From Alkalilimnicola ehrlichii MLHE-1 (GTDB taxonomy: Bacteria; Pseudomonadota; Gammaproteobacteria; Nitrococcales; Halorhodospiraceae), in contig NC_008340.1 in the NCBI RefSeq assembly GCF_000014785.1, forward strand, positions 240,001 to 272,000: a stretch of DNA of 32,000 nucleotides, given 5' to 3'. This document shows, piece by piece, positions 3,444-27,856 of this stretch. Numbering within the stretch: the stretch's first letter is position 1; the number at the start of each line of letters is the position of its first letter. A program made the translations under genes and the position numbers. Under the pieces are notes generated by a model, which was not told the DNA's origin, did not search any database, and saw nothing but the letters and a program-made list of their open reading frames with translations.

Positions 3444-3456
3444 GCCGAGGTGCGCT

Positions 3457-3951
3457 TCAGGAGTCGTCGTGCTGGCCCTTGGCGGTGGCGTCGCGGGCGT
3501 GCTGGGCGCGTACCTCCTCCTTGGTCGCCGGGCGCACTTCGCGCACGTCCAGCTCGAAGGTGAGTCGGCGGCCGGCCAATGGGTGGTTGCCATCCAGAAT
3601 GGCGCCGTTCTCGGTCAGGCGTAGGACCTTGAGGGTGAAACGCCGGCCGTGGGAGCCGCTGGTCAGTTGTTGGCCCTCGTACAGCTCCAGGTCGTCCGGG
3701 AGGAACTCGCGGTTGGCCTCGAACACCAGGTTCTCCTTGTGCGGGCCGTAGGCCTCTTCCGGGGGCAGGGTGACCCGGTGGGGCGTGCCCGCCTCGAGGC
3801 CCTCCAGCGCCTCTTCCAGCGCGGGCAGGATGTGCCGGTAGCCGTGCAGGTAGACCATGGGGCCGGACTGTTCGCTGTCGTCCAGCAGGGTCCCGTCTTC
3901 GTCCTTTAGCCGGTAATGCACGGTGGCCACGGTGTTCTTGCGGATCTTCAT
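3457..3951 (-). CDS. slyD: FKBP-type peptidyl-prolyl cis-trans isomerase, SlyD-like (no His-rich tail)
   Basis: Start at MKIRKNTVATVHYRLKDEDGTLLD (cat 3949-3951). It has LDGNHPLAGRRLTFELDV, matching the SlyD DGNHxLAG motif. 164 aa. Its start overlaps the stop of the upstream gene (TGATG). Confidence 0.85.
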   Translation of the reverse strand: MKIRKNTVATVHYRLKDEDGTLLDDSEQSGPMVYLHGYRHILPALEEALEGLEAGTPHRVTLPPEEAYGPHKENLVFEANREFLPDDLELYEGQQLTSGSHGRRFTLKVLRLTENGAILDGNHPLAGRRLTFELDVREVRPATKEEVRAQHARDATAKGQHDDS

Positions 3952-4517
3952 CAGCGTTGTCTCCTGCCGCGCATCAGGTACCAGAGCAGCGCGGCGATGA
4001 GGATGGGTGTAAGGGCCAGCAGGGTCCAGGTGGCGGCCGCCTTGGAGGCGGGTGCGCCATGGGTTTCCGCCAGGTGGTCGGTAATCACCCGCCATTCCCC
4101 CGACTCCAGTTCGGCGCCGTAGGCCAGACGCATGCGCCAGACGGTGAAGGCCCAGCCCGGCCAGGTTCGTGCCTCGCGGTCGAAGTCGCCGGCATCGTGG
4201 CACTCCATGCAGCGGCGTTCGGTCAGGCGAACCGGGTAGGGGCGTGCGGCCAGTTCCGCCTCGCGGGCCTCCCGCTCGGCGCGCTCGGCCGCCTCGCGCT
4301 CACGCCGGCGTTCCTCCGCCGCCTGGCGTTCGCGTTCGATGGCCTCGCGACGAGCCTGCCGCTCCTCCTCGGTCATGCCCTCCTCGATGGGGTCGACCAT
4401 CAGCTCTTCCGCCGACATACCGGCGTGGCCGGGTAGGACGGGGAGGCCCATGGCGAGCAGCAGGCCGGTCAACCCGGCAATCAGGCGCCCATGGGTCCCG
4501 ACGGTTGGGTGCGGCAT
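3951..4517 (-). CDS. hypothetical exported/membrane-tethered protein with one CXXCH motif (putative monoheme c-type cytochrome)
   Basis: 188 aa. It has a signal-like N-terminus (RLIAGLTGLLLAMGLPVLPGHAG) and a highly charged E/R/A-rich helix. It also has CMECH, and a C-terminal TM (TWTLLALTPILIAALLWYLM) followed by RGRRQR. It lies 11 nt after the arxD stop. Confidence 0.5.
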   Translation of the reverse strand: MPHPTVGTHGRLIAGLTGLLLAMGLPVLPGHAGMSAEELMVDPIEEGMTEEERQARREAIERERQAAEERRREREAAERAEREAREAELAARPYPVRLTERRCMECHDAGDFDREARTWPGWAFTVWRMRLAYGAELESGEWRVITDHLAETHGAPASKAAATWTLLALTPILIAALLWYLMRGRRQR

Positions 4518-4528
4518 GATCGGCGCGT

Positions 4529-5431
4529 TCAGCGGCTCTTGACTTCCTTGAATTCGGGGTTGGTGTGCTGCATGCCCATGGCGCCGGCCCGGCAGTCGGG
4601 GCAGACGGCCAGGTGGCTGGCGTCCAGCCCTTTAGCCCGCAGGGTGGCCATCATCCCCGCGAGATCGCCGGAGGCGGCGAAGGGCTTGCCGCAGCGGGCG
4701 CACTCGGTCTGGTTGCCGGCGCTGCTGGCGGCCACGGCGGCGGAGGCCTCTGCCAGTTCGGGGGCGTCCTCTTGCGCTTCGGCCTCCGGGGCGGGCACCT
4801 GGGCCTGCAACCAGCGGGCGTCCTGGTCCAGGCTGTCGCGGACCAGGCGGGCCAGCAGCAGGTAGGGCGCGCCGTGGGGGGTGTCGCGGACCTCCTGTTC
4901 GAGCTTGCGTACCCAGTCGTTGGGCCAGGGGCGCAGGAAGCGGTTGAGGAAGTCGCGGGCCTCCTCCAGGTAGTGGGTGGCGGATTCGCCGTCCTCGGCC
5001 TGGCTGGCGGAGGCGAGCAGCAGGGCGAGGAACTGCAGTTGCAGGGCCAGGTGGTCGGGGGTGTCGCGGAAGCTGACGTCCCTGGCCAGGCCGTGGCGCT
5101 GGTAGTAGCCCTCCATCTCCACGACGCTGGGGCCCATCATGGCCTGATCGATGTAGAGGCCGGCGTTCAGGGGTGCCGGGTAGGGGGGCACCAGGAAGAG
5201 ACGGCTGTAGCCGCGCAGCAGGGTCTCGTGACTGTCGATCTGGCGCATGGCGTTGCGCAGTTGTTGCCCGGCGTCGGTGTCCGGGAGCAGTTCGTCCAGG
5301 TCCGCGGGCAGGGCCTCGCCCATGGCCTCGTGGTATTCGGCCTGCACCGGGGGGATGAAGGCCTGACCGAGGCAGAGGTAGAGCTCCGCGCGGGTCATCA
5401 GGTGCTCGGCGTGTTGTTGCAGGTTCGGCAT
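4529..5431 (-). CDS. arxD: TorD/DmsD-family redox enzyme maturation chaperone with a C-terminal CxxC...CxxC zinc-ribbon extension
   Basis: 300 aa. The core (AELYLCLGQAF, LLRGYSRLF, PDHLALQLQFLALL) is typical of the TorD/NarJ family. An extra tail of about 90 aa carries CARCGKPF...CPDCR. Confidence 0.8.
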   Translation of the reverse strand: MPNLQQHAEHLMTRAELYLCLGQAFIPPVQAEYHEAMGEALPADLDELLPDTDAGQQLRNAMRQIDSHETLLRGYSRLFLVPPYPAPLNAGLYIDQAMMGPSVVEMEGYYQRHGLARDVSFRDTPDHLALQLQFLALLLASASQAEDGESATHYLEEARDFLNRFLRPWPNDWVRKLEQEVRDTPHGAPYLLLARLVRDSLDQDARWLQAQVPAPEAEAQEDAPELAEASAAVAASSAGNQTECARCGKPFAASGDLAGMMATLRAKGLDASHLAVCPDCRAGAMGMQHTNPEFKEVKSR

Positions 5432-5504
5432 GGTGTTGTCTTGGCCTGATTCGTTGGTCTGGGGGGCGTAGACGCCATTTTAGACGTCCACGGCTTCGTT
5501 CGGG

Positions 5505-5719
5505 GGTTTTTGGAGAGGGCTGCCGGGGTGGCGGGTTATCGATTGAGGCTCCAGTTGCGCACCCCTTCGGGGTGCCCTGCGCTACTCGCCAAAAGGCGGC
5601 GGCGCGAACTCGCTTCGCTCGGACAGGCGCGCCTTTTTTCCGCCTTTTTGCTGCGTTGCTCGGTGCGCAAAGTCGCCTCAATCGATAACCCGCCACCCCG
5701 GCAGCCCTCTCCAAAAACC
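5505..5719. repeat. 215-bp palindromic (MITE/REP-like) element with perfect 45-bp terminal inverted repeats
   Basis: Positions 5505-5549 (ggtttttggagagggctgccggggtggcgggttatcgattgaggc) are the exact reverse complement of 5675-5719. The interior is also partly self-complementary (ttgcgcacc / ggtgcgcaa, and hairpin gcaccccttcggggtgc). Both strands give the same pseudo-ORF start, MERAAGVAGYRLR. Confidence 0.65.
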
Positions 5720-5772
5720 GGCAGGTGAAGGGGCGCCGGGGCCTCCCTGCCCCGGCTTTCCGTGCCCCTGCG

Positions 5773-6966
5773 TCAGGCCGTGGCCTTGGCCTCGGCCTCC
5801 GCTGCCTCCTCCAGTTGCTCCGGCACGGCGGAGAGGTTGAAGAACTTCTCGCCGAGCACGTAGAGCGTAAAGATCATGGCGGAGCCCATGATGGTCAGTG
5901 CCCACTCGGTGGCCGAGGGGGTGTACTGGATCATGTTCCAGGCCCAGGTGCCCTGGAACAGCGGGATGACCTGGCCGCCCACCACGAAGAAGTAGCGTTC
6001 GGCGAACAGGCCGCCAAAGGTCAGCACGGAGACCAGCACCTGTACCTGCGGGTTGACGCGCAGATTGCGCGACATCATGAGGGCGAACGGCACCAGCAGG
6101 CCCAACAGCAACGAGAGGATGTACACCGGCGAGGCGAACAGGTAGTCCGCCCAGACGTGGTAGACCTCCGGGTTGTTGGTGTACAGGCCGGTGATGGCAC
6201 GCACGGCCACGAACAGGATGGTCAGCCCCAGCACCGCGGCGAACAGTTTGGGCAGGCCGTTGTTCAGGGCGTTCTGCAGCTTCTGCGGCATCTTGCTGCG
6301 GTCGAAGCCGTAGGCCAGGTAGCTGAAGAACACCAGCGCGGCCATGCCGCTGGTCACGGCGGTGAGGTAGAAGTAGATGGGCAGCGAGCCGTCGAACCAG
6401 AACGGTCGCATGCTCATCATGCCGAAGATCAGCGCCAGGTTACCACTGGCCAGCAGCACGCCCAGGAAGGAGGCGATGCCGATGATCTTGGTGTTCTTGC
6501 TGTCCCAGTCGCCGGCCTCCATCTTCTGGAACTTCCAGAGCAGGAAGAGCAGGTCGGCGGCGTAGAACACACCCATCCAGAACATGGCGGACTGGATCTG
6601 CATGTTGAAGGGGATGGCCCACAGCATGCGGAAGGTGTGGCCCAGCTCCAGCGCCAGCACTGCCATACCGGAGATCAGGATGATGAAGGCCAGGAAGATG
6701 GCCCGCTTGGCGATGCCGTAGTACTGCTTGAAGCCGAACACCAGGGGCAGCGAGGCGATCAGGCCCAGCCCGGACGACGCCAGGGCGAAGTACAGGTAGG
6801 TGGAGATCGGCTGCCCCCAGGGCAACTTCGAACTGACGTTGAAGGCGGCGTGACCCACCGTGTTGAGCTGGAAGATCACGTAGCCGAAGGTCGCCACCAT
6901 CACGGCGGCGGAGAGTATCAGCAGGCCGGTGCCCAGCCCGCCCTTCATGACGTTGTTATCTGACAT
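5773..6966 (-). CDS. arxC: NrfD/PsrC-family polytopic membrane anchor (quinone-interacting subunit)
   Basis: 397 aa and very hydrophobic, with multiple TM helices. It follows the Fe-S subunit by 14 nt. Confidence 0.85.
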   Translation of the reverse strand: MSDNNVMKGGLGTGLLILSAAVMVATFGYVIFQLNTVGHAAFNVSSKLPWGQPISTYLYFALASSGLGLIASLPLVFGFKQYYGIAKRAIFLAFIILISGMAVLALELGHTFRMLWAIPFNMQIQSAMFWMGVFYAADLLFLLWKFQKMEAGDWDSKNTKIIGIASFLGVLLASGNLALIFGMMSMRPFWFDGSLPIYFYLTAVTSGMAALVFFSYLAYGFDRSKMPQKLQNALNNGLPKLFAAVLGLTILFVAVRAITGLYTNNPEVYHVWADYLFASPVYILSLLLGLLVPFALMMSRNLRVNPQVQVLVSVLTFGGLFAERYFFVVGGQVIPLFQGTWAWNMIQYTPSATEWALTIMGSAMIFTLYVLGEKFFNLSAVPEQLEEAAEAEAKATA

Positions 6967-6980
6967 GGTCGTTCACCCCC

Positions 6981-7730
6981 TCAGGAATTGCGCGGGCTGA
7001 AAGCGGGCACGCCGGCGCCGGCGCCCAGGTAGTAGACCTGCGGGCGGTTGCCCGTATGGTCCAGCAGCCGCACGCCGTGCTTGTCGCCGATGATGCGGTT
7101 GACGTTGGACTCCGGGTTGTCCAGGTCGCCGAAGTAGCGGGCCTTGGGTGGGCAGGTGCGCACACACGCCGGCACGTACTCGACCAGCTCCGGATCGTCC
7201 TCGTCCAGGTCGGGCACGCCCTCGGGGGCCTTGCTGACCTTGTGGTAGCAGAAGGTGCACTTGGAGACCACGCCCTTGGGCTGGATGCCGATGCCCCGGC
7301 GCCAGTCCTGCTCCGGGTTCTGGTAGGGCGGGCTCCACATCTGCCCGTTCTCGCCCGGGTAGACGTCGCGCATGTCCGGCTCGATGAGCGGCTGCTCGTC
7401 GGCGTAGAAACGCACGCCGTAGGGGCAGGCGATCATGCAGTATTTGCAGCCGATGCACTTGTTCCAGTCCACGAAGACGATGCCGCCGGCGTCCGGGTCC
7501 TTGTAGGTGGCCCGGGTCGGGCAGACGTGCACGCAGGACGGGTCCTCACACTGCATGCAGGGCCGCGGCAGCCACTTCATCTGGGCGCTCGGGTACTCGC
7601 CCTCGTTGTAGTACAGCACGTCCTGCCAGCTCTCGCCGGGCAGGGTGTTGTTCTCCATGGCACAAGCCGTGGTGCACGCTTGGCACCCGGTGCACTTGTC
7701 CAGGTCGATGACCATTCCCCACTTAGCCAT
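6981..7730 (-). CDS. arxB: 4Fe-4S ferredoxin-type electron-transfer subunit (DmsB/PsrB family)
   Basis: 249 aa. Begins MAKWGMVIDLDKCTGCQACTTAC, then CMQCEDPSCVHVCP, CIGCKYCMIACP and CTFC...CVRTCP. SD GGAGGA upstream. Confidence 0.9.
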   Translation of the reverse strand: MAKWGMVIDLDKCTGCQACTTACAMENNTLPGESWQDVLYYNEGEYPSAQMKWLPRPCMQCEDPSCVHVCPTRATYKDPDAGGIVFVDWNKCIGCKYCMIACPYGVRFYADEQPLIEPDMRDVYPGENGQMWSPPYQNPEQDWRRGIGIQPKGVVSKCTFCYHKVSKAPEGVPDLDEDDPELVEYVPACVRTCPPKARYFGDLDNPESNVNRIIGDKHGVRLLDHTGNRPQVYYLGAGAGVPAFSPRNS

Positions 7731-7755
7731 TATTCATGTCCTCCAGTTATCAGGC

Positions 7756-10269
7756 TCACGCCTTTTCCAGCCGCACCTTGGCGGTGTAGTAACAGGCGAG
7801 CCCGGAAATCGGGTCAGAGAGGTTCTCGGTGAGATCACCCGAGTGCCCTGGTTTCATGTCACGGCCCTGGGCGGTGGCCCAGCGGCCCTGGGCCCAGTGG
7901 CCGTACTCCATGGGCAGCACCAGGGTGTCCGGACGGTGCCCCGGCATGTAGCGGGCCACGGCGAGGATGGACTTGGTCTCGCCCCGTACCTGGGCGGAGA
8001 GGCGGACGGTGTCGCCGTCGTTGATGCCGCGCTCCTGGGCGGTCTTGGGGTGGATCTCCAGGTAACAGGTGCCCCGACCCCCGACAATGGGCTGCATATA
8101 GGCCTGGGCCTGCGGGATGTTGGCGCTGCGGCCCTCCGCGTGCAGCGGGGTCTTGGGGGTGACGAAGTGCAGGTCACCGTCGCCGGTGTGGCGGGGCTCC
8201 ACCCACTGGATGAGTCCGACCCGATCCTCGGCGATGCCCATCTCCCGGGCGATATAGTTGGCGTTGTTCTCCAGGAAACTGGACTTGAACTCGAACTTGC
8301 CGGAGGCCGTGGGCATGAGCTTGTCCTTGACCTCGTCCTCCGACATCTCGATGTTGTAGCCCTCGCCGTCCCACTCGTAGAAGGTGCCCCGCCAGTAGCG
8401 CCAGTGGTAGGGCTTCTTGTACCAGACGCCCTTCTCCTTCCAGCTCTCGAAGTCGTTGACGCCATTATCGCCCGGGTCGTTGGCGAAGCCGGCGGCGCGG
8501 TGGCGCAGCATGTTCTCCACATCACCCAACTCGCGGTAGTAGTCCGCCATCGGGCTGTTAATGCGCTTGCCGATCTCGATGATCATGTCGCCGAAGTGTT
8601 TGGTGTCGTACACCGGGTCCACGGCCGGGGTGCGCAGCGCGGCCATGGGCCAACCCTCGAACGGGTAGGTGGGCGAGTCCTGCAGCCGCTCCAGGTAGGT
8701 GTGCTCCGGCATGATGATGTCGGCGTACATGGCCGTCTCGCCGGGGTAGGGGGAGGTGTCGATGATGAAGACGTCCTTCAGTGCCTCCTCCCACAGGCGC
8801 GGGTCGGGCGCGGTCCAGATGGGGTTAGTGACGAAGAACATGGCCGTGTCCAGCTTGTAGGGGTCGCCGGCCAGGTGGTGCTTGGCGCACTCCTGCATCA
8901 TGGTGCCGGCCATCGGCCACTTCTCGGTGCCCGCCATGTCGATGCGCGGATGCTTGCCCTGCATCTCCCGGGCGTAGTCGTCCATGTAATCGTCGGCGCT
9001 CACCGGCAGCGGGCCGTAGGAGGGACCCATCTGGTAAAACAGCCCGCCCTCGGCGAACATGCTGCCCACCAGCGCGTTCAGCGCGTGCACCGCCATGCCA
9101 TTGTAGGTGCCGTTGAAGTGGGCGGTCGGCCCACGCTCCATGATGGCCATGGCCGGGCGGGTGGTCGCGAACTCCCGGGCCACGGTATAGATGTGCTTGG
9201 CCGGGATGGTGGTGATCTCCTCGGCCCACTCCGGGGTGCGGTCCTTCAGCTCCCCGTTCCACCATTCGGCCAGGCCGTGGGTCCAGTTGGCCTGGAAGGC
9301 GTCGGGAATGATGGTCTCGCCGGTGCGGAAGTGGTTGCGGCCGTCCTCGAAATCGCCGACGAACTCCTTGTCCCACAGGCCCTCGGTGAGGATGACATGG
9401 GCGATGGCCAGGGCCAGGGCGCCGTCGGTGCCCGGCTTGATCATCAGCGCGCGGTCCGAGGCCGCCATGGTGGGATTCATGCGCACATCAATGGTGGTTA
9501 CCCGGGTCTTGGGGCTCTTCGTGCGCATGTGGCCCCAAACCTGCATCAGGTAGTTGTAGGGGCGGAAGGCCTCCAGGAAGCCGGCGCCGAAGTTCAGGAT
9601 GTAGTTGGTGTTGCGGTAGTCGTAACTGTTGTAGGAGTCGTTGCCGTCAGTGGCGCGCTTGGCCCGCTTGGAGCCCTCGGCGCACATGGAGGCGTGGCCG
9701 ATGGCCGAGTTCGGGGTGCCGTAGAGCTTGCCGAAGTCGCCGTACAGGCCAGCATCGGAGGAGCCCCAGCCGCGACCGTAGAAGTGGGCAAAGCGATGGG
9801 ACTCGCCGCGCTCGCGCAGGCGGTTGAGCCGCTCGGCGACAATATCGAAGGCCTCGTCCCAGGAGATGGGCACGAACTCCGGGTCCTCGTCGCGGCCCTT
9901 GTTGGGGTTGGTGCGCTTCATCGGGCCCTTGAACCGGTCCGGGTCGTACAGCAACTGGGTGCCCAGGTGGCCCTTGGGGCAGAGCTTGCCGTTGGCGATG
10001 GGGTTGCCCGGGTCGCCGTAGATGGCGTGCACCCGTCCGTTGGTGGTGTAGACGTTGATGCCGCAGCGGGCCGGGCACTGGTGACAGATGTTCTTGGTCA
10101 CACGGGTCTCGCCGCCCGGCCGGGCATTGACATGGGTGGAGGTGGTGCTGGCGGCGGTGAAGCCGGCCAGCTTGCCCACCCCGGCGGTGGTCGCGGCCGC
10201 GGCGCCGGTGGCACCGGTGGCCTTGAGGAACCGCCGCCGGTTAAGCAGCGTATCCAGGATCATTTTCAT
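7756..10269 (-). CDS. arxA: Tat-exported bis-MGD molybdopterin oxidoreductase catalytic subunit, ArxA-type anaerobic arsenite oxidase
   Basis: 837 aa. Twin-arginine signal NRRRFLKATGATGAAAA. N-terminal CHQCPARC-X27-C (CX2CX3CX27C) Fe-S motif. YGRGWG at aa 164-169. Operon context arxB2/B/C/D plus divergent arxXSR. Confidence 0.8.
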   Translation of the reverse strand: MKMILDTLLNRRRFLKATGATGAAAATTAGVGKLAGFTAASTTSTHVNARPGGETRVTKNICHQCPARCGINVYTTNGRVHAIYGDPGNPIANGKLCPKGHLGTQLLYDPDRFKGPMKRTNPNKGRDEDPEFVPISWDEAFDIVAERLNRLRERGESHRFAHFYGRGWGSSDAGLYGDFGKLYGTPNSAIGHASMCAEGSKRAKRATDGNDSYNSYDYRNTNYILNFGAGFLEAFRPYNYLMQVWGHMRTKSPKTRVTTIDVRMNPTMAASDRALMIKPGTDGALALAIAHVILTEGLWDKEFVGDFEDGRNHFRTGETIIPDAFQANWTHGLAEWWNGELKDRTPEWAEEITTIPAKHIYTVAREFATTRPAMAIMERGPTAHFNGTYNGMAVHALNALVGSMFAEGGLFYQMGPSYGPLPVSADDYMDDYAREMQGKHPRIDMAGTEKWPMAGTMMQECAKHHLAGDPYKLDTAMFFVTNPIWTAPDPRLWEEALKDVFIIDTSPYPGETAMYADIIMPEHTYLERLQDSPTYPFEGWPMAALRTPAVDPVYDTKHFGDMIIEIGKRINSPMADYYRELGDVENMLRHRAAGFANDPGDNGVNDFESWKEKGVWYKKPYHWRYWRGTFYEWDGEGYNIEMSEDEVKDKLMPTASGKFEFKSSFLENNANYIAREMGIAEDRVGLIQWVEPRHTGDGDLHFVTPKTPLHAEGRSANIPQAQAYMQPIVGGRGTCYLEIHPKTAQERGINDGDTVRLSAQVRGETKSILAVARYMPGHRPDTLVLPMEYGHWAQGRWATAQGRDMKPGHSGDLTENLSDPISGLACYYTAKVRLEKA

Positions 10270-11552
10270 CGCCTTGTATCCTCCTGATCATCGTGATCCC
10301 CGGGTTGGGTGCCCGGGTCTTGTGCGGGGCCCGCGGCCCCGGAGCTTGAGCCTGCCCCGAAGAGCAGGTCGCGGCCCGAATCCTGGGCCAGTGCGGCATC
10401 CTTGCGGCAGCCGGGACAGAGCGTGTGCTCCTTCCCCGCGGTGAACGTGGTGTGACAGCGCTGGCAACGCTGCCGGTGGTGTCGGGTGGCCGGGACGCGT
10501 CCCACATAGGGGTGGCCGTCGCGTTCCGTTATGGTGATGGCCTTTTCCGGGCAGACCTGTTGACACAGGCCGCAACGGATGCAGAAGAGCGGGTCGTAGT
10601 CCAGCCCGCTGCCGTCCTCGTCCTCCACCGGTTGCAGGGCGCCGGTGGGGCAGAGCGCCGCGCAGATACGGTGGTTGCAGCAGGCGTCGGAGATCTTCGC
10701 CTGCGGAAAGAGGGTGTTGGGCAGGCTCTGGTCCTGGGCCACCGCCAGGGCCGCCAGGGCCTCCACCCGGCGAAGGCGCGGTGCGGGCTGAACCCGGCCC
10801 GAGACCATCGGCACTGCGGCCGGCGCGGCCGGGCCGGTGCCCTGGATCTGTTCCGCGGCCCCGGCCGCGTGGCCGGCCAGCCGACGGAACAGCCCCCGGC
10901 GGCTGACCCGTGTCTCCCCGCCGGGTGTGGGGGTCTCCCGGCGGTACAGGTGGGCGGGTAGCGGGGCCTTCCGCAGGCTGGGGCTGCGCCCGGTAAGCCC
11001 CAGTGAGGCCAGGGCCTCGCGGCACTCGGTCAGGGCCTGATCCACCGGCGGGCGCCGGCAGTCGGCGGCGGCCGGGCAGTCGGCGCACCAGCCCCGGTCG
11101 AGCAGTTCCACCGGACGCTCGCCGCACTCCTGCACCAGTCGCAGCAGGCGATCGCTGCCCAGGCCCCCCAGGCAGGGCACCCGCAGGGCGCCTTCCGGGG
11201 ACTGCTCCGGCGGCACCCGCCAACAATCCACGGCCAGCGGTGCGGTGGCCTGGTCATCGCCGGGGTGGCTGTCCAGCCCGGCGCCGTTGATCGCCCCGGT
11301 CGGGCAGGCCGCGGTGCAGCGGCCGCAGGCGACGCAGTCGCCGGTCAGTTGCGGGCCTTTCGGCGTGGCGGTCAGGGCATCCACCGGGCAGGCCTGGCTG
11401 CAGGCACGGCAATCGGACAGGGGCGAGCGCGCCGGCAGGCAGGCGTTCTCCTGCCACAGCAACCAGGGCTGGGCATCGCTCAGGCGATGCCAGGCCGACT
11501 GTTCGGCGGACTCTGACAAGCGGCTTCTCCTCCACACCCCGGCCCGGTTCAT
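10266..11552 (-). CDS. arxB2: cytoplasmic multi-[4Fe-4S] protein (ArxB2 / ArxB-prime) with a C-terminal zinc-ribbon and acidic tail
   Basis: 428 aa with no Tat or Sec signal. Cys clusters: CRACSQACP, CVACGRCTAACP, CCNHRICAALCP, CIRCGLCQQVCP. The tail carries CQRCHTTF...CPGCR. ATGA overlap with the arxA start. Confidence 0.72.
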   Translation of the reverse strand: MNRAGVWRRSRLSESAEQSAWHRLSDAQPWLLWQENACLPARSPLSDCRACSQACPVDALTATPKGPQLTGDCVACGRCTAACPTGAINGAGLDSHPGDDQATAPLAVDCWRVPPEQSPEGALRVPCLGGLGSDRLLRLVQECGERPVELLDRGWCADCPAAADCRRPPVDQALTECREALASLGLTGRSPSLRKAPLPAHLYRRETPTPGGETRVSRRGLFRRLAGHAAGAAEQIQGTGPAAPAAVPMVSGRVQPAPRLRRVEALAALAVAQDQSLPNTLFPQAKISDACCNHRICAALCPTGALQPVEDEDGSGLDYDPLFCIRCGLCQQVCPEKAITITERDGHPYVGRVPATRHHRQRCQRCHTTFTAGKEHTLCPGCRKDAALAQDSGRDLLFGAGSSSGAAGPAQDPGTQPGDHDDQEDTRR

Positions 11553-11629
11553 TGATTTATTCCCCCGCCGTGCGAGGGTCGGGCCGTTGGTCTAATTGCG
11601 AAGTAACTTTTATAGTGGTGTGGTCTTAA

Positions 11630-11644
11630 GCAATAGCCTTGCCA
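11630..11644 (-). promoter_or_regulatory. sigma54 (-24/-12) promoter for arxB2ABC(D)
   Basis: The minus strand reads TGGCAAGGCTATTGC, giving GG-N10-GC spacing that fits TGGCAC-N5-TTGC. It lies 78-92 nt upstream of the arxB2 ATG. A sigma54-dependent activator is encoded next door. Confidence 0.6.
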
Positions 11645-11709
11645 AGTGGCGTGGTGTGGCATTTAGACGCAGCGCGGCGCAGGATGGCCCAGCGAATCTG
11701 CGCATGAGT

Positions 11710-11725
11710 GTTACCGGTGGGTAAC
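11710..11725. promoter_or_regulatory. palindrome GTTACC-N4-GGTAAC, candidate enhancer-binding (ArxR) site 1
   Basis: tGTTACCggtgGGTAACg lies about 70 bp upstream of the sigma54 promoter. Confidence 0.45.
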
Positions 11726-11752
11726 GTAAACGAGGTGGTTCCGGCTTGAATT

Positions 11753-11768
11753 GTTACCGATAGGTAAC
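11753..11768. promoter_or_regulatory. palindrome GTTACC-N4-GGTAAC, candidate enhancer-binding (ArxR) site 2
   Basis: tGTTACCgataGGTAACg. Its centre is 43 bp from site 1 (about 4 helical turns). It ends 20 nt upstream of the arxX ATG. Confidence 0.45.
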
Positions 11769-11787
11769 GGCCGCGTGGAGGTGGAAG

Positions 11788-12687
11788 ATGGCCCGTTGGT
11801 TCGGTTCCGTATGGTTGGCGCTGTTGGTGGCGTCGACACCCGCGGCGATCGCCGCAGAGCACGCTGCAGAGCAATCGCAGCCCCTGCGTATCGGCCTGAC
11901 GCCGGTGATCCTGGAGGATCAATTGAGCTTCCTGGACGAGTGGCAGACCTACCTGGAGCGGCGCACCGGCCGGGAGGTGCAATTCGTGCGCCGTAACAGC
12001 TACGGTGAGGTGGTGGAGCTGGCTCTGCGGGGCCGGATCGACTTCGCATGGCTTTGCGGCTACCCCTACGTCCAGCATGACACCCGATTGGGTCTGCTGG
12101 CGGTCCCGCGGTTCAACGGGGCGCCCCTCTACCAGGCCTATTTAATCGTGCCGGCCAATGACCAGGCGACCGAATCCATCAAGGACCTGGCCGGCCGGGT
12201 ATTTGCTTACTCCGATCCCAATTCCAACTCCGGCTGGCTCTACGGCCAGCAGTTGCTGGACGAGGCCGGCGTCATGGACCCGGAGCGCTTCTTCCTGCGC
12301 ACCTTCTTCACCTTCAGCCACCGCAAGGTGGTGGAGGCGGTGGCGGAGCGCGTGGCCCATGGTGGCCTCGTGGATGGCTACGTCTGGGAGACGCTGGCGC
12401 TGGACCGGCCCGACCTCACCGGGCGGACCCGGGTCGTGCATCGCTCCGAGCCGTTTGGCTTTCCGCCGCTGGTGGCTTCTCCCGGCACCACCGAGGGCGA
12501 ACGCCGGGCGCTGCAAGAGGCCCTGTTCGGTATGGATGAGGACCAGCGCGGACGGGAGTTGCTGGAGCGCTTGAACCTGGAGCGGTTCGAGGCCGGGGAT
12601 GAGTCGCTCTACGACGGTATCCGCGATCTCAAGCGCCTGGTGGATGTGGGCCGGCTGCCGGAGCCGCCGGACGGCTACGAGCGATGA
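11788..12687 (+). CDS. arxX: periplasmic PhnD-like substrate-binding protein (arsenite-sensing partner of the two-component system)
   Basis: 299 aa. Sec signal MARWFGSVWLALLVASTPAAIAAE. PhnD-type fold signature (IDFAWLCGYPYV, SNSGWLY). ATGA-coupled to the kinase gene. Confidence 0.75.
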   Translation: MARWFGSVWLALLVASTPAAIAAEHAAEQSQPLRIGLTPVILEDQLSFLDEWQTYLERRTGREVQFVRRNSYGEVVELALRGRIDFAWLCGYPYVQHDTRLGLLAVPRFNGAPLYQAYLIVPANDQATESIKDLAGRVFAYSDPNSNSGWLYGQQLLDEAGVMDPERFFLRTFFTFSHRKVVEAVAERVAHGGLVDGYVWETLALDRPDLTGRTRVVHRSEPFGFPPLVASPGTTEGERRALQEALFGMDEDQRGRELLERLNLERFEAGDESLYDGIRDLKRLVDVGRLPEPPDGYER

Positions 12688-14150
12688 TCGAGAACATCAG
12701 CTACCGCTACAAGGTGCCGCTGAACATCACCCTGGTGGTGGTGCTGACCGCGGCGGTGATCTCGCTGACGGTGTTGGGGCAGGCCTGGCGCGATCTGGAG
12801 CGGGACCTTTACCAGAACGGCCAGAGCCTGGCCCGGGTGCTGGCCCATGGGGTCGCCCCGGCGCTGTTGCAGGAGGACGTCTGGGGGGCCTACGAGACCA
12901 TCCGGACCCCCATGGCGGTGGACATGGAGCCCCACCTGCGCCCGGAGAGCATCATGGTGCTGGACGAGCACCACCGGATCTATGTCTCCACCGATCCGGA
13001 CCGCCTGCCAATCCTCGCCCGCCCCGCCGAGGCGGACCCCGATCTGGCTCCTCTGGGGCGGTTACTGGCCGGGGAGGGGATCAGTGGCCCGGAGCGGCTG
13101 CAGTTGGCGGGCAACGAGTTCCTGGTGCTGTTGCCGGTGGAGATGGATGGCAGCGTGCTGGGTACGGTGGTGCTGGGCTATTCGCGCGCCGGGTTTCTGC
13201 CCCGTTTTCTCGGGGCGATGCAACAGGTGTTGGTCACCACGTTCCTGATCCTGCTGGTGCTGGTGCCGGCCGGATGGTGGCTGGGCCGGCGGGTGGCCGA
13301 GCCGCTGCTGGCGCTGTCCGCCTGTATGGATAAGCTCGGCAGCGGCTCCGCGGAGCGGCTGGGCTGCCAACTGCGGCGTACCGGCGACGATGAGATCGGA
13401 CGGCTCAATCGCCAATTCCACGCCCTCATTGAGGAGTTGCAGGAGAAAGAGGCCCTGGAGCGGGAGATGGTGCGGGCCGACCGGCTGGCGGCCATCGGCC
13501 GGCTGACCTCCGGGATCGCCCACGAGATCAACAACCCGCTTGGCGGCATGCTCAACGCACTCAACACCTATAAACATCATGGGGCGCCGGACCCCTTCAC
13601 CCTCAAGACCCTGTCGCTGGTGGAGCGCGGTCTGCTGCAGATCCGCGATATCGTCGGCGCTCTGCTGGTGGAGACCCGGCTTAAGGGGGAGGACCTCTGG
13701 GCGGAGGACCTGGAGGATGTGCGTACACTGCTGGCGCCGGACATTCGCCGAAAGCAGGTGAACCTGGACTGGGACAACCGGCTTCAGGGGCCGGTGCCCC
13801 TGCCGGCGACCCCGGTGCGTCAGGTGCTCATCAACCTGCTGCTCAACGCGGTGCGCGCGGCGCAACAGCGTGGTCGGGTCGATTGCCGGCTGGAGCGTGT
13901 CGACGGCTGGTTGCTGATCACCGTCTGGAACGACGGCGACCACATACCCGCCGAGCGCATGGATCACCTGTTCGAGCCCTTCTCCGGTGCCAGTGCCGTG
14001 GGCAACGGCCTGGGCTTGTGGGTAACCTATCAGATCATTGAGCAGCTAAGTGGGCGTATTGAAGTGGAGAGTCGACCCGACGACACCCGATTCGTCGTCC
14101 AGTTGCCGCTGGAGGCCCGTGAGGCCGAGCTGCGGGAGGCGCTGTCATGA
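12684..14150 (+). CDS. arxS: sensor histidine kinase (2 TM, HAMP, HisKA, HATPase_c)
   Basis: 488 aa. H-box SGIAHEINNPLGGM, N-box LINLLLNAVRAA, G-box GNGLGLWVTYQII. Confidence 0.85.
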   Translation: MIENISYRYKVPLNITLVVVLTAAVISLTVLGQAWRDLERDLYQNGQSLARVLAHGVAPALLQEDVWGAYETIRTPMAVDMEPHLRPESIMVLDEHHRIYVSTDPDRLPILARPAEADPDLAPLGRLLAGEGISGPERLQLAGNEFLVLLPVEMDGSVLGTVVLGYSRAGFLPRFLGAMQQVLVTTFLILLVLVPAGWWLGRRVAEPLLALSACMDKLGSGSAERLGCQLRRTGDDEIGRLNRQFHALIEELQEKEALEREMVRADRLAAIGRLTSGIAHEINNPLGGMLNALNTYKHHGAPDPFTLKTLSLVERGLLQIRDIVGALLVETRLKGEDLWAEDLEDVRTLLAPDIRRKQVNLDWDNRLQGPVPLPATPVRQVLINLLLNAVRAAQQRGRVDCRLERVDGWLLITVWNDGDHIPAERMDHLFEPFSGASAVGNGLGLWVTYQIIEQLSGRIEVESRPDDTRFVVQLPLEAREAELREALS

Positions 14151-15481
14151 GCGCTCGCCTGTGTCTCATCGAGGACGATCCCATCATGGGTGAGTCCCTG
14201 CAGGATCGCTTCACCCTGGAGGGGTTTCAGGTGGACTGGTTCGTGACCGCGGCACAGGCCCGGGAGCACCTGCGGGGCGGGGGATACGCGGCGGCCATCA
14301 GTGACATCCGGCTGCCCGACCAGGAGGGGGATGCCCTTTACCTGTCCTTGAAACGCGACGGCCAGGTGCTCCCCCCGTTTATCTTCATCACCGGCCACGG
14401 TGCCATCGAGACGGCGGTCCAGCTATTGAAGGAGGGGGCTGCGGATTACGTTACCAAACCCTTTGACCTGGATGAGCTGGTCACCAAGGTGCGCGGGCTG
14501 GCGGAGGCTCAGGGGGGAGACGCCCCGGCCGAGGAGGGCGAGCCCCTGCTTGGGATTGCACCGGCCATGCGGCGGCTTGAGGAGCGTCTGCGCCGCCTCG
14601 CCCGCGCCGGGGCCGGCGTGCTGATCACCGGTGAGTCCGGTGTCGGGAAGGAGCACGCCGCGCGCCTGCTCCACCAGGCCGGTGCCGGCGACGGTGAGCG
14701 CCCCTTCGTGGCGGTGAACTGCGGTGCGTTGACCGAGAGCCTGCTGGAGGCCGAGCTGTTTGGTCATGAACGAGGCGCTTTCACCGGCGCGGCCCGGGCG
14801 CGGCGCGGCGTGTTCGAGCAGGCTCAGGGGGGGACCCTGTTTCTGGACGAGATCGGCGATATGTCGCCGGCGATGCAGGTGCGTCTGCTGCGCGCGATTC
14901 AGGAACGCTGCATCACCCGGGTCGGTGGCGAGACGCCCATCCCCGTGGATATCCACCTGGTGTCCGCCACCCACCGCGACCTGCGTGCCCTGGTGGAGTC
15001 CGGTGAATTCCGCGAGGACCTCTACTACCGCATCAACACCGTGCAGGTGCGCATCCCGCCGCTGCGCGAACGGCCCGAGGATATCCTCTGGTTCGCCGCC
15101 CGCTTCCTCGCCGAGGCGGCTGCCGAGCAGGGACGGGAGGATCTGCAGGGGCTGTCCGGTCAGGCCCAGGAGGCGCTGCTGGAGCACCACTGGCCCGGCA
15201 ATCTGCGTGAGCTGCGCCATGCCATCGATCGGGCGGTCATCCTCGCCGAGGGGCCGCAGGTCACCCCGGCGGATCTGTTTGACGACCGGGATGAGCCGGG
15301 CCTGCCCGATGAGGCGGGCCAGGGGCTGACCGATTACCTGCGTCGTTGCGAACGGGCCCATATCGTGCAGGCGCTGGAGGCCCACGGCGGGCATATGGCC
15401 CGGACCGCCGCCAGCCTGGGGATCAGCCGCAAGAACCTTTGGGAGAAGATGAAGAAGCTCGGGGTGAAGGCGCCCGGATAG
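14147..15481 (+). CDS. arxR: sigma54-dependent NtrC/Fis-family response regulator
   Basis: 444 aa. Receiver domain (AAISDIRLPD), Walker A GESGVGKE, GAFTGA motif, C-terminal HTH AASLGISRKNLWEKMKKLG. Confidence 0.9.
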   Translation: MSARLCLIEDDPIMGESLQDRFTLEGFQVDWFVTAAQAREHLRGGGYAAAISDIRLPDQEGDALYLSLKRDGQVLPPFIFITGHGAIETAVQLLKEGAADYVTKPFDLDELVTKVRGLAEAQGGDAPAEEGEPLLGIAPAMRRLEERLRRLARAGAGVLITGESGVGKEHAARLLHQAGAGDGERPFVAVNCGALTESLLEAELFGHERGAFTGAARARRGVFEQAQGGTLFLDEIGDMSPAMQVRLLRAIQERCITRVGGETPIPVDIHLVSATHRDLRALVESGEFREDLYYRINTVQVRIPPLRERPEDILWFAARFLAEAAAEQGREDLQGLSGQAQEALLEHHWPGNLRELRHAIDRAVILAEGPQVTPADLFDDRDEPGLPDEAGQGLTDYLRRCERAHIVQALEAHGGHMARTAASLGISRKNLWEKMKKLGVKAPG

Positions 15482-15536
15482 CGAGGGCGGCTGTGCGCTG
15501 TCGCTGGTTTGTCGCAGTGGGGTGCGGGGGCTACGC

Positions 15537-15566
15537 TTCAAGTCAGGGCGGCAAGGCGGTTATACT
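15537..15566 (+). promoter_or_regulatory. possible sigma70 promoter for tal (TTCAAG-N18-TATACT)
   Basis: This is the only promoter-like hexamer pair in the 122-bp arxR-tal gap. The spacer is one nt longer than optimal. Confidence 0.25.
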
Positions 15567-15603
15567 GCCCGGTTCCCGATCAAATCAGGTGCGGAGGCGC
15601 ACG

Positions 15604-16749
15604 GTGACTCGCAACAACCCCCTAAGAGAGCTGATCGAATTGGGCCAAAGCCCCTGGTTCGACAATATTCATCGCCGCATGCTGGAACAGGGCGAGCTCC
15701 AGCGCCTGGTGGAGGAGGACGGCCTGCGCGGGGTGACATCCAACCCCACCATCTTCCAGAAGGCGATCGGTGGTAGTGACGCTTACGACGCCGCCATCGC
15801 CGACGCCCTGGCCGCCGCGCCGGAGCTGGATGCTGAGGGGTTATTCATGCACCTGGCCCTGGCCGATATCCGTGCCGCCGCCGACGTGCTGCGCCCGGTC
15901 TGGGAGCAGACCGACGGTGCCGACGGTTTCGTCAGCATGGAGGTCTCGCCGGAACTGGCCTGGGACACTGACCGCACCATTGCCCAGGCCCGAGAGCTTT
16001 TCGCCCGCGTCGACCGGCCCAATGTGATGATCAAGGTGCCGGCCACCCGCGAGGGCCTACCGGCCATTGAGGCGCTGATCGCCGATGGGATCAGCGTCAA
16101 CGTCACCCTGCTGTTTTCCGTGCAACGCTACACCGAGGTGGTCGAGTCCTGGTTGGAGGGCCTGCGGCGCCGGCGCGAGGCCGGGCTGCCGGTGAATGAT
16201 GTGCAGTCGGTGGCCAGCTTTTTCGTCAGCCGGGTGGACAACAAGGCGGACCCCATCCTGCAGGCCGCCGGGGACGCCGGGGCCCGCGAGCTGCTGGGCA
16301 GTGCCGCGATCGCCAACGCCCGCGCTGCCTATGCCCATATGCAGCGGTGGTTGAGTGGCCCGCGCTGGCCAGAGCTGGCCGCCGTGGGCGCCCGCCCGCA
16401 ACGCCTGCTGTGGGCGAGCACCGGCACCAAGAACCCGGACTACTCCGACGTCCTCTACGTGGACCGGCTCGTCGGGCGGAACACGGTCACCACCCTGCCG
16501 CCGGCCACCTGGGAGGCCTTCCGTGACCACGGCGCCGCCCGGCCGGTGCTGGAGGACGGCGACGACGGTGCCGCCACCCTGGCTGCCCTGGCCCGCCACG
16601 GCGTGCAAATGGACACCATTACCGCCGAGTTGGAGCGCGAGGGGGTGCAGGCCTTCGTGGATTCCTACCGCGACCTGCTGGGCACGCTGCAGCGCAAGGC
16701 GGCCCAACTGGGGGCCACACCGGCCCGCGGCAACGCGGAGGGTGCATGA
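15604..16749 (+). CDS. tal: transaldolase
   Basis: GTG start at 15604, 6 nt after GGAGG; the ORF-track start at 15346 overlaps arxR. Motifs seen: SPWFDNI, GVTSNPTIF, and Schiff-base lysine MIKVPAT. 381 aa. Confidence 0.85.
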   Translation: MTRNNPLRELIELGQSPWFDNIHRRMLEQGELQRLVEEDGLRGVTSNPTIFQKAIGGSDAYDAAIADALAAAPELDAEGLFMHLALADIRAAADVLRPVWEQTDGADGFVSMEVSPELAWDTDRTIAQARELFARVDRPNVMIKVPATREGLPAIEALIADGISVNVTLLFSVQRYTEVVESWLEGLRRRREAGLPVNDVQSVASFFVSRVDNKADPILQAAGDAGARELLGSAAIANARAAYAHMQRWLSGPRWPELAAVGARPQRLLWASTGTKNPDYSDVLYVDRLVGRNTVTTLPPATWEAFRDHGAARPVLEDGDDGAATLAALARHGVQMDTITAELEREGVQAFVDSYRDLLGTLQRKAAQLGATPARGNAEGA

Positions 16750-20755: not shown

Positions 20756-20841
20756 TTCGTATATCATTGTTATAGAATATGAGTTTGTCGGCGCGCCCCG
20801 GCCGCCCGGCACCAGCCTTGCCAGTGGGAGTGACAGACACC

Positions 20842-27813: not shown

Positions 27814-27856
27814 AGGTTTCCTCCTCTGATGATCCGGCAATCGTGTTGCCTGGGGG

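Follow-up and report, generated by a model that had tools for sequence, protein, structure and literature searches.

The alternative, anaerobic arsenite oxidase Arx was first defined for strain MLHE-1 of Alkalilimnicola ehrlichii, where arxB2ABCD stands divergent from arxXRS (Zargar 2010, 2012, as relayed by PMC6549141 and PMC6683785). The same two sources credit Zargar 2010 with the findings that arsenite, under anoxia, is the sole inducer of MLHE-1 arxA and that, as mutagenesis showed, chemoautotrophic arsenite oxidation depends on this gene. An identical arxB2ABCD/arxXSR layout has been reported for the photoarsenotrophs Ectothiorhodospira sp. BSL-9 and PHS-1, in which arsenite oxidation is tied to anoxygenic photosynthesis rather than, as in MLHE-1, to nitrate respiration (PMC6549141). 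On the sensory side, MLHE-1 ArxX binds arsenite with a Kd of 311 nM and gives no signal with any other oxyanion tested, arsenate included, while the ArrX of Chrysiogenes is an arsenate-binding protein whose partner ArrR does not belong to the sigma-54 activators (PMC5908839). A counterpart of ArxB2 is undescribed for the respiratory arsenate reductase, Arr (PMC6549141).

The region described here, part of a 32-kb stretch of DNA analysed as a whole (the window), is almost certainly the arx gene cluster of MLHE-1 or of a near-identical strain. Its 837-amino acid (aa) catalytic product matches ABI55571.1/WP_011627967.1 of MLHE-1 residue for residue, and the window shows 100% identity to a contig assembled from sequencing run SRR32708590 and 99.7% identity to A. 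ehrlichii CP184336.1, in which independent gene calls recovered the same genes. Because this protein is identical to that of MLHE-1 and arx was first defined there, the window holds the arx type locus itself, beyond an arx-like one. An initial annotation made from the sequence had recognized an arx locus and set it beside that of MLHE-1 without realizing that the DNA is the type strain's own, and comparison with the MLHE-1 cluster shows it to be the same locus; the call is thus correct, but the locus is already published and hence not new. We found no evidence in the analysis that contradicts the arx assignment. The arx descriptions consulted do not include two conserved genes 3′ of arxD or paired palindromes as a putative conserved operator, and we likewise found no mention in them of an inverted-repeat element of 215 bp that lies in the arxC–arxD interval.

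All eight open reading frames of the initial annotation are present exactly where it had placed them, Pfam and NCBIfam matches confirm the domains that it assigned to each product, and its two divergent operons are consistent with four-base overlaps at arxB2/arxA, arxX/arxS and arxS/arxR. Judged by the eight genes of the published definition, its description of the locus as complete stands, but two further conserved genes of the same orientation sit immediately beyond the boundary that it drew, and the minus-strand unit very probably extends past position 4529 to 3457 to take them in. To call the system known but rare was fair, as a pattern-seeded scan of 185,579 species, with one genome per species, returned 106 confirmed stretches encoding relatives. 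The cluster is distributed across Alpha-, Beta- and Gammaproteobacteria, and the arxB2ABCD plus arxXSR layout recurs across dozens of genomes in our synteny comparison.

Table 1. Features of the arx locus in window coordinates.
Feature	Position	Strand	Product or length	Description
SlyD-like gene	3457..3951	-	164 aa	FKBP peptidyl-prolyl isomerase; Pfam FKBP_C; NCBIfam PRK10737 91.7 bits, below cutoff
Unnamed cytochrome c-like gene	3951..4517	-	188 aa	Follows arxD
arxD	4529..5431	-	300 aa	TorD/NarJ-type Tat-proofreading, cofactor-insertion chaperone; Pfam Nitrate_red_del 7.8e-22
MITE-like element	5505..5719	.	215 bp	45-bp perfect terminal inverted repeats, 100% complementary; within arxC-arxD spacer
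arxC	5773..6966	-	397 aa	NrfD/PsrC-type integral membrane quinone-interacting subunit; Pfam NrfD 3.5e-22
arxB	6981..7730	-	249 aa	Four-cluster [4Fe-4S] electron-transfer subunit; Fer4_11 and related families
arxA	7756..10269	-	837 aa	Tat-exported Mo-bisMGD catalytic subunit; Pfam TAT_signal, Molybdop_Fe4S4, Molybdopterin, Molydop_binding
arxB2 (ArxB')	10266..11552	-	428 aa	Polyferredoxin, 27 Cys, several Fer4 families
Sigma-54 (RpoN) -24/-12 promoter	11629..11644	-		TGGCAAGGCTATTGCT; for arxB2ABCD
Promoter-proximal palindrome	11710..11725	.		GTTACCGGTGGGTAAC; 81 bp upstream of -24 element; putative ArxR enhancer (UAS)
Distal palindrome	11753..11768	.		GTTACCGATAGGTAAC; 124 bp upstream of -24 element; putative second ArxR site
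arxX	11788..12687	+	299 aa	Periplasmic arsenite-binding sensor protein; Pfam Phosphonate-bd 1.3e-60
arxS	12684..14150	+	488 aa	Membrane sensor histidine kinase; HAMP, HisKA, HATPase_c
arxR	14147..15481	+	444 aa	Sigma-54-dependent (AtoC/NtrC-type) response regulator; Response_reg, Sigma54_activat, AAA_lid_14, HTH_8

ArxA carries the Tat motif RRRFLK (residues 11–16), a cluster motif C62-x2-C65-x3-C69...C97, a G-RGWG loop at residues 165–169 and Cys196 as molybdenum ligand. In a neighbour-joining tree on a MAFFT alignment, which informs clade membership and not divergence order and whose deep nodes are weak (Arx17 18/100), it belongs to an Arx core clade (support 100/100) as sister to the 78% identical ArxA of Ectothiorhodospira BSL-9, which has been validated genetically. 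It branches outside ArrA, PsrA/PhsA and TtrA, in line with the initial annotation, and the ArrA clade that includes Shewanella ANA-3 ArrA (PDB 6cz7) is separate (100/100). Against NCBIfam models, the protein scores 444 bits for ArrA (cutoff 1600), 284 for PhsA (694), 34 for TtrA (1750) and 23 for AioA (359).

ArrA, the nearest characterised relative, thus tops the NCBIfam matches, as it does those in the PDB (6cz7, 8e-113), and the MLHE-1 enzyme is said, in work attributed to Richey et al. 2009, to have both activities in vitro, which would favour an Arr working in the reductive direction. We consider this very improbable. The ArrA-model score lies far under its cutoff, with Arx-clade members at 400–470 bits and ArrA-clade members at 667–1178, the protein stands outside the ArrA clade, and G-RGWG, present in 10/10 Arx-clade sequences, replaces the RG-RY(T/S) loop of most ArrA-clade sequences. 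The linked sensor is, moreover, AioX-like, its MLHE-1 form binding arsenite and giving no signal with arsenate (PMC5908839), and the mutagenesis relayed by PMC6549141 shows that MLHE-1 cannot do without arxA in chemoautotrophic arsenite oxidation. The arsenite-dependent induction and oxidation phenotype associated with the call by the initial annotation are borne out in literature citing Zargar 2010 (PMC6549141, PMC6683785), and the mutant defective in oxidation and the induction specific to arsenite, as relayed there, refute an Arr. A polysulfide or thiosulfate reductase (Psr/Phs) has a probability close to nil, even though Psr has the same A-B-NrfD arrangement of subunits, PhsA is the second-best NCBIfam match (284 bits), PsrA 2vpw matches at 1e-57 and close homologues bear the label ‘thiosulfate reductase / polysulfide reductase chain A’ in several automatic JGI annotations. 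The PhsA score is under its cutoff and PsrA is further away than ArrA in the alignment, while the linked sensor is arsenite-binding (PMC5908839) and the genetics of MLHE-1 and BSL-9, as relayed by PMC6549141, indicates arsenite oxidation.

The remaining genes, too, have the domains expected of arx. Upstream of arxA, where it is kept in most arx loci, arxB2 overlaps arxA by 4 nt; its start is uncertain, with an alternative call of 417 aa in a sister strain (L081). The 16 Cys of ArxB fall into four groups, and its top NCBIfam matches, QrcC and ArrB, are both under cutoff, with identities of 65–93% across arx loci. ArxC has multiple hydrophobic segments and its gene is syntenic in arx loci. The NCBIfam match of ArxD spans residues 14–211 only, followed by a C-terminal extension of ~90 aa with two CxxC motifs (C244/C247 and C277/C280) that is kept in most homologues, the four-Cys form occurring in 21/68. 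The MITE-like element in the arxC–arxD spacer has a predicted RNA fold of -155.5 kcal/mol (z = -11.8) and, among the arx loci compared, is confined to A. ehrlichii. Two short-read assemblies stop 30 nt into it.

Behind arxD, an 11-nt gap and then a one-base overlap (the cytochrome-gene stop and the SlyD-like ATG, TGATG) join the two further genes to the minus-strand unit; we found no terminator-like site between arxD and these genes, and the next gene, an esterase at 2763–3443 (+), is convergent. The 188-aa protein, also called as a gene in CP184336.1, opens with an N-terminal signal/TM helix, continues with a long charged helix and a monoheme cytochrome c domain (CMECH), and ends in a C-terminal TM anchor. 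Weak matches to Pfam Dehyd-heme_bind and NCBIfam QH_alpha are accompanied by profile matches at 1.8e-10 with the haem domain of QH-AmDH and at 1.8e-6 with SorB, and the predicted structure (pLDDT 86) matches the folds 1jmx/1jju/2blf_B. Its family is small, with only 23 homologues among 5.8 billion proteins, all ‘hypothetical’ or unnamed and all retaining C103, C106 and H107. A homologue lies 3′ of arxC/arxD on the same strand in 25/62 loci, and every genomic context found for the family, across Alpha-, Beta- and Gammaproteobacteria and including the two metagenome contexts examined, is directly behind arxC/arxD. Homologues of the SlyD-like gene follow arxD in the same orientation in 18/62 loci, and the gene accompanies arx in both Beta- and Gammaproteobacteria. 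It is still adjacent despite a different gene order in L014 and L017, where it lies on the opposite strand beside the promoter of arxB2, and L057 has a partial match at a contig edge. That both genes are unrelated neighbours outside the arx system, as their omission from the eight-gene cluster descriptions consulted, the 27/62 arx loci with neither gene downstream and the general housekeeping character of SlyD-type isomerases would suggest, is somewhat unlikely given this linkage. The cytochrome-like gene is probably the sixth structural gene of the arx operon, and the SlyD-like gene probably its last.

Transcription of this unit would be driven from a single site, the only match in the 32-kb window to TGGCAC-N5-TTGCW with at most one mismatch. 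It has the right place and orientation for arxB2ABCD, and the same 16-mer has been proposed in print as RpoN promoter for the MLHE-1 arx locus, tggcaaggctattgct (PMC5908839); a comparable sigma-54 site is present in 36/43 divergent arx loci. Two perfect GTTACC-N4-GGTAAC palindromes occur in the window against 0.01 expected, lying 43 bp apart, the distal one preceding the arxX ATG by 20 bp. Across arx loci, 61 of the 81 matches in 1.40 Mb are within the 19.8 kb adjoining arxX, and most of the others are also upstream of arxB2. Palindromes precede arxA in 37/41 loci with arxXSR versus 1/15 without (Fisher p = 7e-9, which ignores phylogeny). From this distribution, we infer that they are ArxR binding sites. 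The ArxR site proposed in PMC5908839, gtaacaattcaagc (window 11745–11758, minus strand), overlaps only the left half-site of the distal palindrome.

Among solved structures, ArxX is nearest to AioX 6esv (5.6e-61), then ArrX 6x6b (3.9e-38) and then PhnD/PtxB, and its sole Cys, C90 in WLCGYP, lines up with the WICGYP Cys of AioX, taken as Cys106. In ArxS, hydrophobic segments 13–31 and 182–200 flank a ~150-aa periplasmic loop and H280 in HEINNP is the phospho-acceptor, while in ArxR the Walker A motif is found at residue 162 and GAFTGA at 210. We postulate that periplasmic ArxX, on binding arsenite as shown for the MLHE-1 protein (PMC5908839), signals to ArxS, which by analogy with AioXSR would phosphorylate ArxR. 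Phosphorylated ArxR may then bind both palindromes, with its AAA+ domain opening the sigma-54 promoter, as comparative genomics suggests, to drive arxB2-arxA-arxB-arxC-arxD and very probably the two genes after. We found no element at the locus accounting for the anoxia requirement of induction. As a TorD family member, ArxD would hold the ArxA Tat signal during Mo-bisMGD insertion, after which ArxAB would be exported through Tat and dock on ArxC. Arsenite would be oxidized to arsenate at the molybdenum centre, and electrons would pass through the iron-sulfur clusters of ArxA and ArxB to ArxC, putatively to the quinone pool, and on to nitrate respiration. More speculatively, the membrane-anchored monoheme cytochrome might offer a second electron exit, and the SlyD-like isomerase might help with folding or Tat targeting.

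Set against known systems, the window agrees with the published MLHE-1 arx cluster in gene order, orientation and RpoN promoter sequence, the eight genes being without difference. The Ectothiorhodospira loci examined (L040 and L041) are without the downstream cytochrome and SlyD-like genes, and the palindromes of L041 are 64 bp apart versus 43 bp in the window. ArrAB of Shewanella sp. ANA-3, the nearest solved structure to ArxA (aligned residues 60–836), has a common cofactor-binding layout, conserved His/Cys/Lys in an H-x-S-x-C-A-E-x-x-K segment and a four-cluster B subunit homologous to ArxB; it differs in the residue after the conserved His (Ser in ArrA, Ala in ArxA), in its RG-RY loop and separate clade, and in the opposite physiological direction. 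The regulators come closest to AioXSR of Rhizobium sp. NT-26: ArxX is most similar to AioX and conserves the arsenite-binding Cys, and both systems pair a kinase with a sigma-54 activator of the AtoC type and use an RpoN promoter. The enzyme regulated by AioXSR, AioAB, has a Rieske partner and is distant within the DMSO-reductase family, and the AioA model gives ArxA only 23 bits. The haem domain of the 188-aa protein resembles SorB of the SorAB sulfite dehydrogenase (Starkeya novella, PDB 2blf_B; TM 0.65 on SorB, rmsd 2.3 Å), a monohaem cytochrome taking electrons from a periplasmic molybdoenzyme; SorB is small and soluble, whereas the arx-linked protein contains a long charged helix and is anchored in the membrane at its C-terminus.

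The locus consists of eight genes in two divergent groups; all eight open reading frames listed in the initial annotation were recovered at exactly the coordinates claimed, and each of its domain descriptions was borne out by Pfam and NCBIfam. The minus-strand genes follow the arx operon order arxB2-A-B-C-D, encoding in turn a polyferredoxin, a molybdenum subunit, a four-cluster iron–sulfur subunit, an NrfD anchor and a TorD chaperone, an order common to related loci and the published description (PMC6549141, PMC6683785), and domain searches likewise recovered the divergent arxXSR module with its periplasmic binding protein. An exact-sequence look-up matched the 837-amino-acid (aa) product to ABI55571.1/WP_011627967.1 of A. 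ehrlichii MLHE-1, while the window aligns at 100% identity over 12.6 kb with an assembly contig of sequencing run SRR32708590 and at 99.7% identity over 18.3 kb with the A. ehrlichii chromosome CP184336.1. The likeness to the published MLHE-1 arx cluster noted at first reading is borne out in full, as the window is that very cluster.

Features of the arx locus and its flanks (window positions)
Feature	Position	Strand	Description
Hairpin TCGGCTCAGTCGG / CCGACTGAGCC	3418-3448		about 11 bp, without a T-run (read by eye)
SlyD-like FKBP gene	3457-3951	minus	164 aa; ATG shares one base with the cytochrome stop (TGATG)
Cytochrome c-like gene	3951-4517	minus	188 aa; starts 11 nt after arxD
arxD	4529-5431	minus	300 aa, TorD/NarJ-type chaperone (Pfam/NCBIfam)
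215-bp element	5505-5719		arxC-arxD spacer; 45-bp perfect terminal inverted repeats, 5505-5549 and 5675-5719
arxC	5773-6966	minus	397 aa, NrfD membrane protein (Pfam/NCBIfam)
arxB	6981-7730	minus	249 aa, ferredoxin, 16 cysteines in four groups
arxA	7756-10269	minus	837 aa, molybdopterin oxidoreductase: Tat signal, N-terminal Fe4S4 domain, dinucleotide-binding domain
arxB2	10266-11552	minus	428 aa, polyferredoxin, 27 cysteines
-24/-12 site TGGCAAGGCTATTGCT	11629-11644	minus	putative RpoN promoter
Promoter-proximal palindrome GTTACCGGTGGGTAAC	11710-11725		81 bp upstream of -24/-12 site
Published putative ArxR site gtaacaattcaagc	11745-11758		14-mer
Distal palindrome GTTACCGATAGGTAAC	11753-11768		124 bp upstream of -24/-12 site
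arxX	11788-12687	plus	299 aa, PhnD-family periplasmic binding protein
arxS	12684-14150	plus	488 aa, HAMP/HisKA/HATPase kinase
arxR	14147-15481	plus	444 aa, receiver / sigma-54 AAA+ / Fis-HTH regulator

Within ArxA, RRRFLK occupies residues 11–16, followed by C62-x2-C65-x3-C69...C97 and by Cys196 within HASMCAEGSK; H280 of ArxS was seen at sequence level, GAFTGA lies at residue 210 of ArxR, and arxB2/arxA, arxX/arxS and arxS/arxR overlap by 4 bases each. The start of arxB2 is ambiguous, with a longest reading frame of 428 aa as against the 417 aa called in CP184336.1. Separately, the TorD-like domain of ArxD is followed by a conserved C-terminal extension of some 90 aa (residues ~212–300; window 4529–4800, minus strand), in which 21 of 68 homologues, that of the window included, bear two CxxC motifs (C244/C247 and C277/C280); the remaining ArxD proteins retain the segment without the cysteines.

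ArxA scored below the cutoff of every competing family model, namely 443.9 bits against an equivalog cutoff of 1600 for ArrA (NF041714), 284.2 against 694 for PhsA (NF012032), 34.3 against 1750 for TtrA (NF011567) and 23.2 against 359 for AioA (TIGR02693), and so fails to qualify as ArrA, PsrA/PhsA, TtrA or AioA. AioA further requires an adjoining Rieske small subunit, whereas the partner of ArxA here is a four-cluster ferredoxin. Among solved structures, ArrA 6cz7 (8e-113) and PsrA 2vpw (1e-57) come closest, the latter aligning with residues 53–571 only. A neighbour-joining tree (757 columns, 100 bootstraps) covers 124 full-length proteins, which represent at 50% identity the results of an exhaustive HMMER search, with eight named ArxA-clade proteins, Shewanella ANA-3 ArrA and a partial Thermus PsrA as references. 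It gathers the window ArxA, BSL-9 ArxA and the rest of the Arx-clade proteins into one group (100/100), to which three more distant representatives attach (100/100), and places ANA-3 ArrA in a separate 15-member clade (100/100). The deep nodes lack resolution (Arx17, 18/100), and because the tree is rooted on the partial PsrA its deep branching is unreliable and permits no conclusion on Arx or Arr as ancestral. ArrA-model scores part the two groups, at 400–470 bits on the Arx side versus 667–1178 bits on the ArrA side. By family-model scores and tree alike, the catalytic subunit does not branch within ArrA, PsrA/PhsA or TtrA, in keeping with its naming as ArxA in the initial annotation.

The alignment shows G-RGWG (window residues 165–169, within YGRGWG at 164–169) in 10 of 10 Arx-clade sequences and RG-RY(T/S) at the equivalent loop in most ArrA-clade sequences, the His/Cys/Lys of the Mo-ligand segment being common to both. 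We take G-RGWG to be the published ArxA-type active-site loop that replaces the RG-RY of ArrA; a literature search with the motif string GRGWG returned unrelated papers only.

On the sensing side, the closest relative of ArxX is AioX (5.6e-61), then ArrX (3.9e-38), with PhnD and PtxB far off, and its sole cysteine, C90, aligns with the AioX cysteine in WICGYP, taken to be the arsenite-binding Cys106. Purified MLHE-1 ArxX binds arsenite with a Kd of 311 nM, and binding of the other tested oxyanions was not detected (PMC5908839). A role of this PhnD-like protein in phosphonate or phosphite transport was rejected on the grounds of its affinity to AioX, the published arsenite binding and the lack of adjoining ABC transporter genes. 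The observation itself is confirmed, and scores, tree, active-site loop and ArxX affinity together support the arx interpretation wherever it could be tested.

A scan of one genome per GTDB species yielded 80 loci with ArxA relatives at 57–87% identity. When the eight window proteins were used as tblastn queries, the A-B-C core was recovered in nearly all loci and arxB2 upstream of it in most; arxXSR was divergent in 43, lay downstream in Thioalkalivibrio ALMg11 and AKL19, and was missing from Halomonas and Marinospirillum, an arrangement pattern that agrees with PMC6549141.

The regulatory region between the two operons (11553–11787) has the elements expected of an enhancer-dependent sigma-54 promoter: a GG/GC -24/-12 element, putative activator sites upstream of it and GAFTGA in ArxR. 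The 16-mer TGGCAAGGCTATTGCT on the arxB2 strand, already described as a putative RpoN promoter by Badilla et al. (PMC5908839), is the sole match in the whole window to TGGCAC-N5-TTGCW when one mismatch is allowed. Upstream of it lie two perfect GTTACC-N4-GGTAAC palindromes, GTTACCGGTGGGTAAC and GTTACCGATAGGTAAC, 43 bp apart, where 0.01 matches are expected by chance. At least one palindrome is present in 39 of the 43 divergent loci and at least two in 24, mostly spaced 42–43 bp apart, and 36 of the 43 have a correctly oriented -24/-12-like site, usually ~80 and ~123 bp from the palindromes, with which the distances in the window agree. Across 1.40 Mb of arx loci there were 81 palindrome matches, 61 of them within the 19.8 kb adjoining arxX; most of the other 20 also lie just upstream of arxB2, in loci with arxXSR placed elsewhere. 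A palindrome upstream of arxA accompanies arxXSR in 37 of 41 loci, compared with 1 of 15 loci that lack the module (Fisher p = 7e-9, without phylogenetic correction).

This distribution leads us to infer that ArxR uses the palindrome pair as its enhancer. The 14-mer gtaacaattcaagc, put forward earlier as the ArxR site (PMC5908839), overlaps the distal palindrome in its left half only; no sequence for the AioR site is given in the NT-26 promoter paper. With the arxX start codon 20 bp away, the distal palindrome could, more speculatively, also autoregulate arxXSR. A sigma-70 promoter scan of 3000–16000 gave no site, the arxX promoter included. An FNR/ANR box was considered as the basis of the anoxia requirement and rejected, inspection by eye having turned up no more than a half-site, located at the start codon of arxB2.

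Related motifs occur at other positions in some loci. A third palindrome, GTTACCG-N3-CGGTAAC, lies ~720 bp upstream of arxA in Aromatoleum/Azoarcus arx loci (L060, 9281; L061, 5279; L065, 7939; L067, 9276; L070, 9290), inside the region that holds arxB2 elsewhere, so that an internal second ArxR-dependent promoter may exist there. A further gene under ArxR control may be indicated in the locus of an uncultured betaproteobacterium (L075), where a pair of the same palindromes, 52 bp apart, is found at 21504 and 21556, ~9 kb downstream of arxA.

Two further genes follow arxD on the same strand. The 188-aa product of the first combines a hydrophobic helix at its N-terminus, a long helix rich in Glu and Arg, a single CxxCH and, at the C-terminus, a membrane helix bearing a basic tail; C103, C106 and H107 are conserved without exception across its 23 homologues, the only ones among 5.8 billion proteins and all 'hypothetical' or unnamed. 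Profile comparison of the family gives matches to the quinohaemoprotein amine dehydrogenase (QH-AmDH) haem domain (1.8e-10) and to SorB of sulfite dehydrogenase (1.8e-6), and the AlphaFold model (pLDDT 86) again has QH-AmDH/SorB as its top folds, with weak E-values. The second gene encodes a SlyD-like prolyl isomerase without a His-rich tail and is predicted from the TGATG junction to be translationally coupled to the cytochrome gene. The gene that follows, an esterase, is convergent.

Among the 62 arx loci with enough downstream sequence, the cytochrome gene is found in 25 and the SlyD-like gene in 18 (Beta- and Gammaproteobacteria), each on the same strand after arxC/arxD, with one or both present in 35. 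With two further metagenomic homologues directly behind arxD, the cytochrome family was found directly behind arxC/arxD in 27 of 27 genomic contexts; the Thioalkalivibrio nitratireducens homologue P0294, with no genomic context on record, stands outside these counts. In two loci (L014 and L017) the SlyD-like gene adjoins the arxB2 promoter, on the opposite strand, and a partial match reaches the contig edge in a third (L057). Neither gene is mentioned in the published arx descriptions searched, and a literature search gave nothing relevant on arxE or on slyD together with arxA. No terminator-like site was found between arxD and the SlyD-like gene, terminator-like matches overall being at chance level. 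The two are probably accessory arx genes. Between the convergent SlyD-like and esterase genes sits the hairpin TCGGCTCAGTCGG / CCGACTGAGCC, possibly a bidirectional terminator ending the arx transcription unit.

Much of the arx system has been established, by this analysis or in published work: its gene content and clade membership, the binding of arsenite by ArxX, the dependence of arsenite oxidation on arxA, a gene that mutagenesis in MLHE-1 and Ectothiorhodospira BSL-9 showed to be essential (PMC6549141, PMC6683785, citing Zargar 2010 for MLHE-1), and induction of arxA, for which arsenite under anoxia is the only inducing condition in MLHE-1 (Zargar 2010, as cited in PMC6549141, PMC6683785). 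Judging by what is known of these protein families, the signal would pass from ArxX through ArxS to ArxR in a phosphorelay, and phosphorylated ArxR at the palindromes would act on the sigma-54 promoter; ArxD would serve as chaperone, ArxAB would be exported via Tat, and electrons would flow through the iron–sulfur clusters to ArxC and the quinone. The two downstream genes would be co-transcribed from the same promoter. The cytochrome might then offer a direct cytochrome-level electron exit from Arx beside the ArxC/quinone route, and the isomerase might aid ArxA folding or Tat targeting. To the combined proposal of a co-transcribed unit of seven structural genes with a cytochrome exit, an isomerase helping ArxA and, in place of the published 14-mer, an operator made of two GTTACC-N4-GGTAAC sites about four helical turns apart, we give slightly less than an even chance. 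Under that proposal the cytochrome would be arx-specific, membrane-anchored and monohaem, with a SorB-like haem domain, and is so far found only behind arxD.

The 215-bp element in the arxC-arxD spacer is predicted to fold as RNA at -155.5 kcal/mol (z = -11.8) and, among the loci compared, occurs in A. ehrlichii only. Two assemblies made from short reads stop 30 nt inside the element, suggesting a repeat present in several copies, and it is probably a MITE-like repeat. A metagenome scan with its inverted-repeat arm gave 0 matches, and an Rfam search of the window gave none.

Elsewhere in the window (20779–22488), a gene for an Rrf2-family regulator (plus strand, 183 aa) converges with one for an NnrS haem-copper membrane protein (minus strand, 390 aa), with a short overlap of their 3' ends. 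Such pairing is usually tied to the nitric oxide response and, if nitric oxide-linked here, would fit a denitrifying host. An unusual pairing is seen at 27142–29557 (minus strand), where the gene for a 566-aa protein that carries a glutamate-synthase FMN domain is followed immediately downstream by one for a SoxA/TsdA-like cytochrome c of 232 aa.

The locus is the mark of an anaerobic host that lives chemolithoautotrophically by nitrate-linked arsenite oxidation. This lifestyle was established in MLHE-1 more than a decade ago, so the locus call itself is not new biology, though a first-stage reader proved able to recognise the arx signature from raw sequence. Modest leads that could refine the arx model are the paired operator and the two downstream genes linked to arx. 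A conserved ArxR operator pair, if real, would aid the prediction of arsenite-responsive regulons and be useful in building arsenite biosensors, and an arx-specific cytochrome would bear on electron exit from Arx and on the separate roles of ArxB2 and ArxC. In the synteny comparison proposed by the initial annotation, gene order and orientation match the published cluster. MLHE-1 is the organism in which arx was originally defined, as arxB2ABCD plus a divergent arxXRS (PMC6549141, PMC6683785), and the locus is already known as the arx type example.
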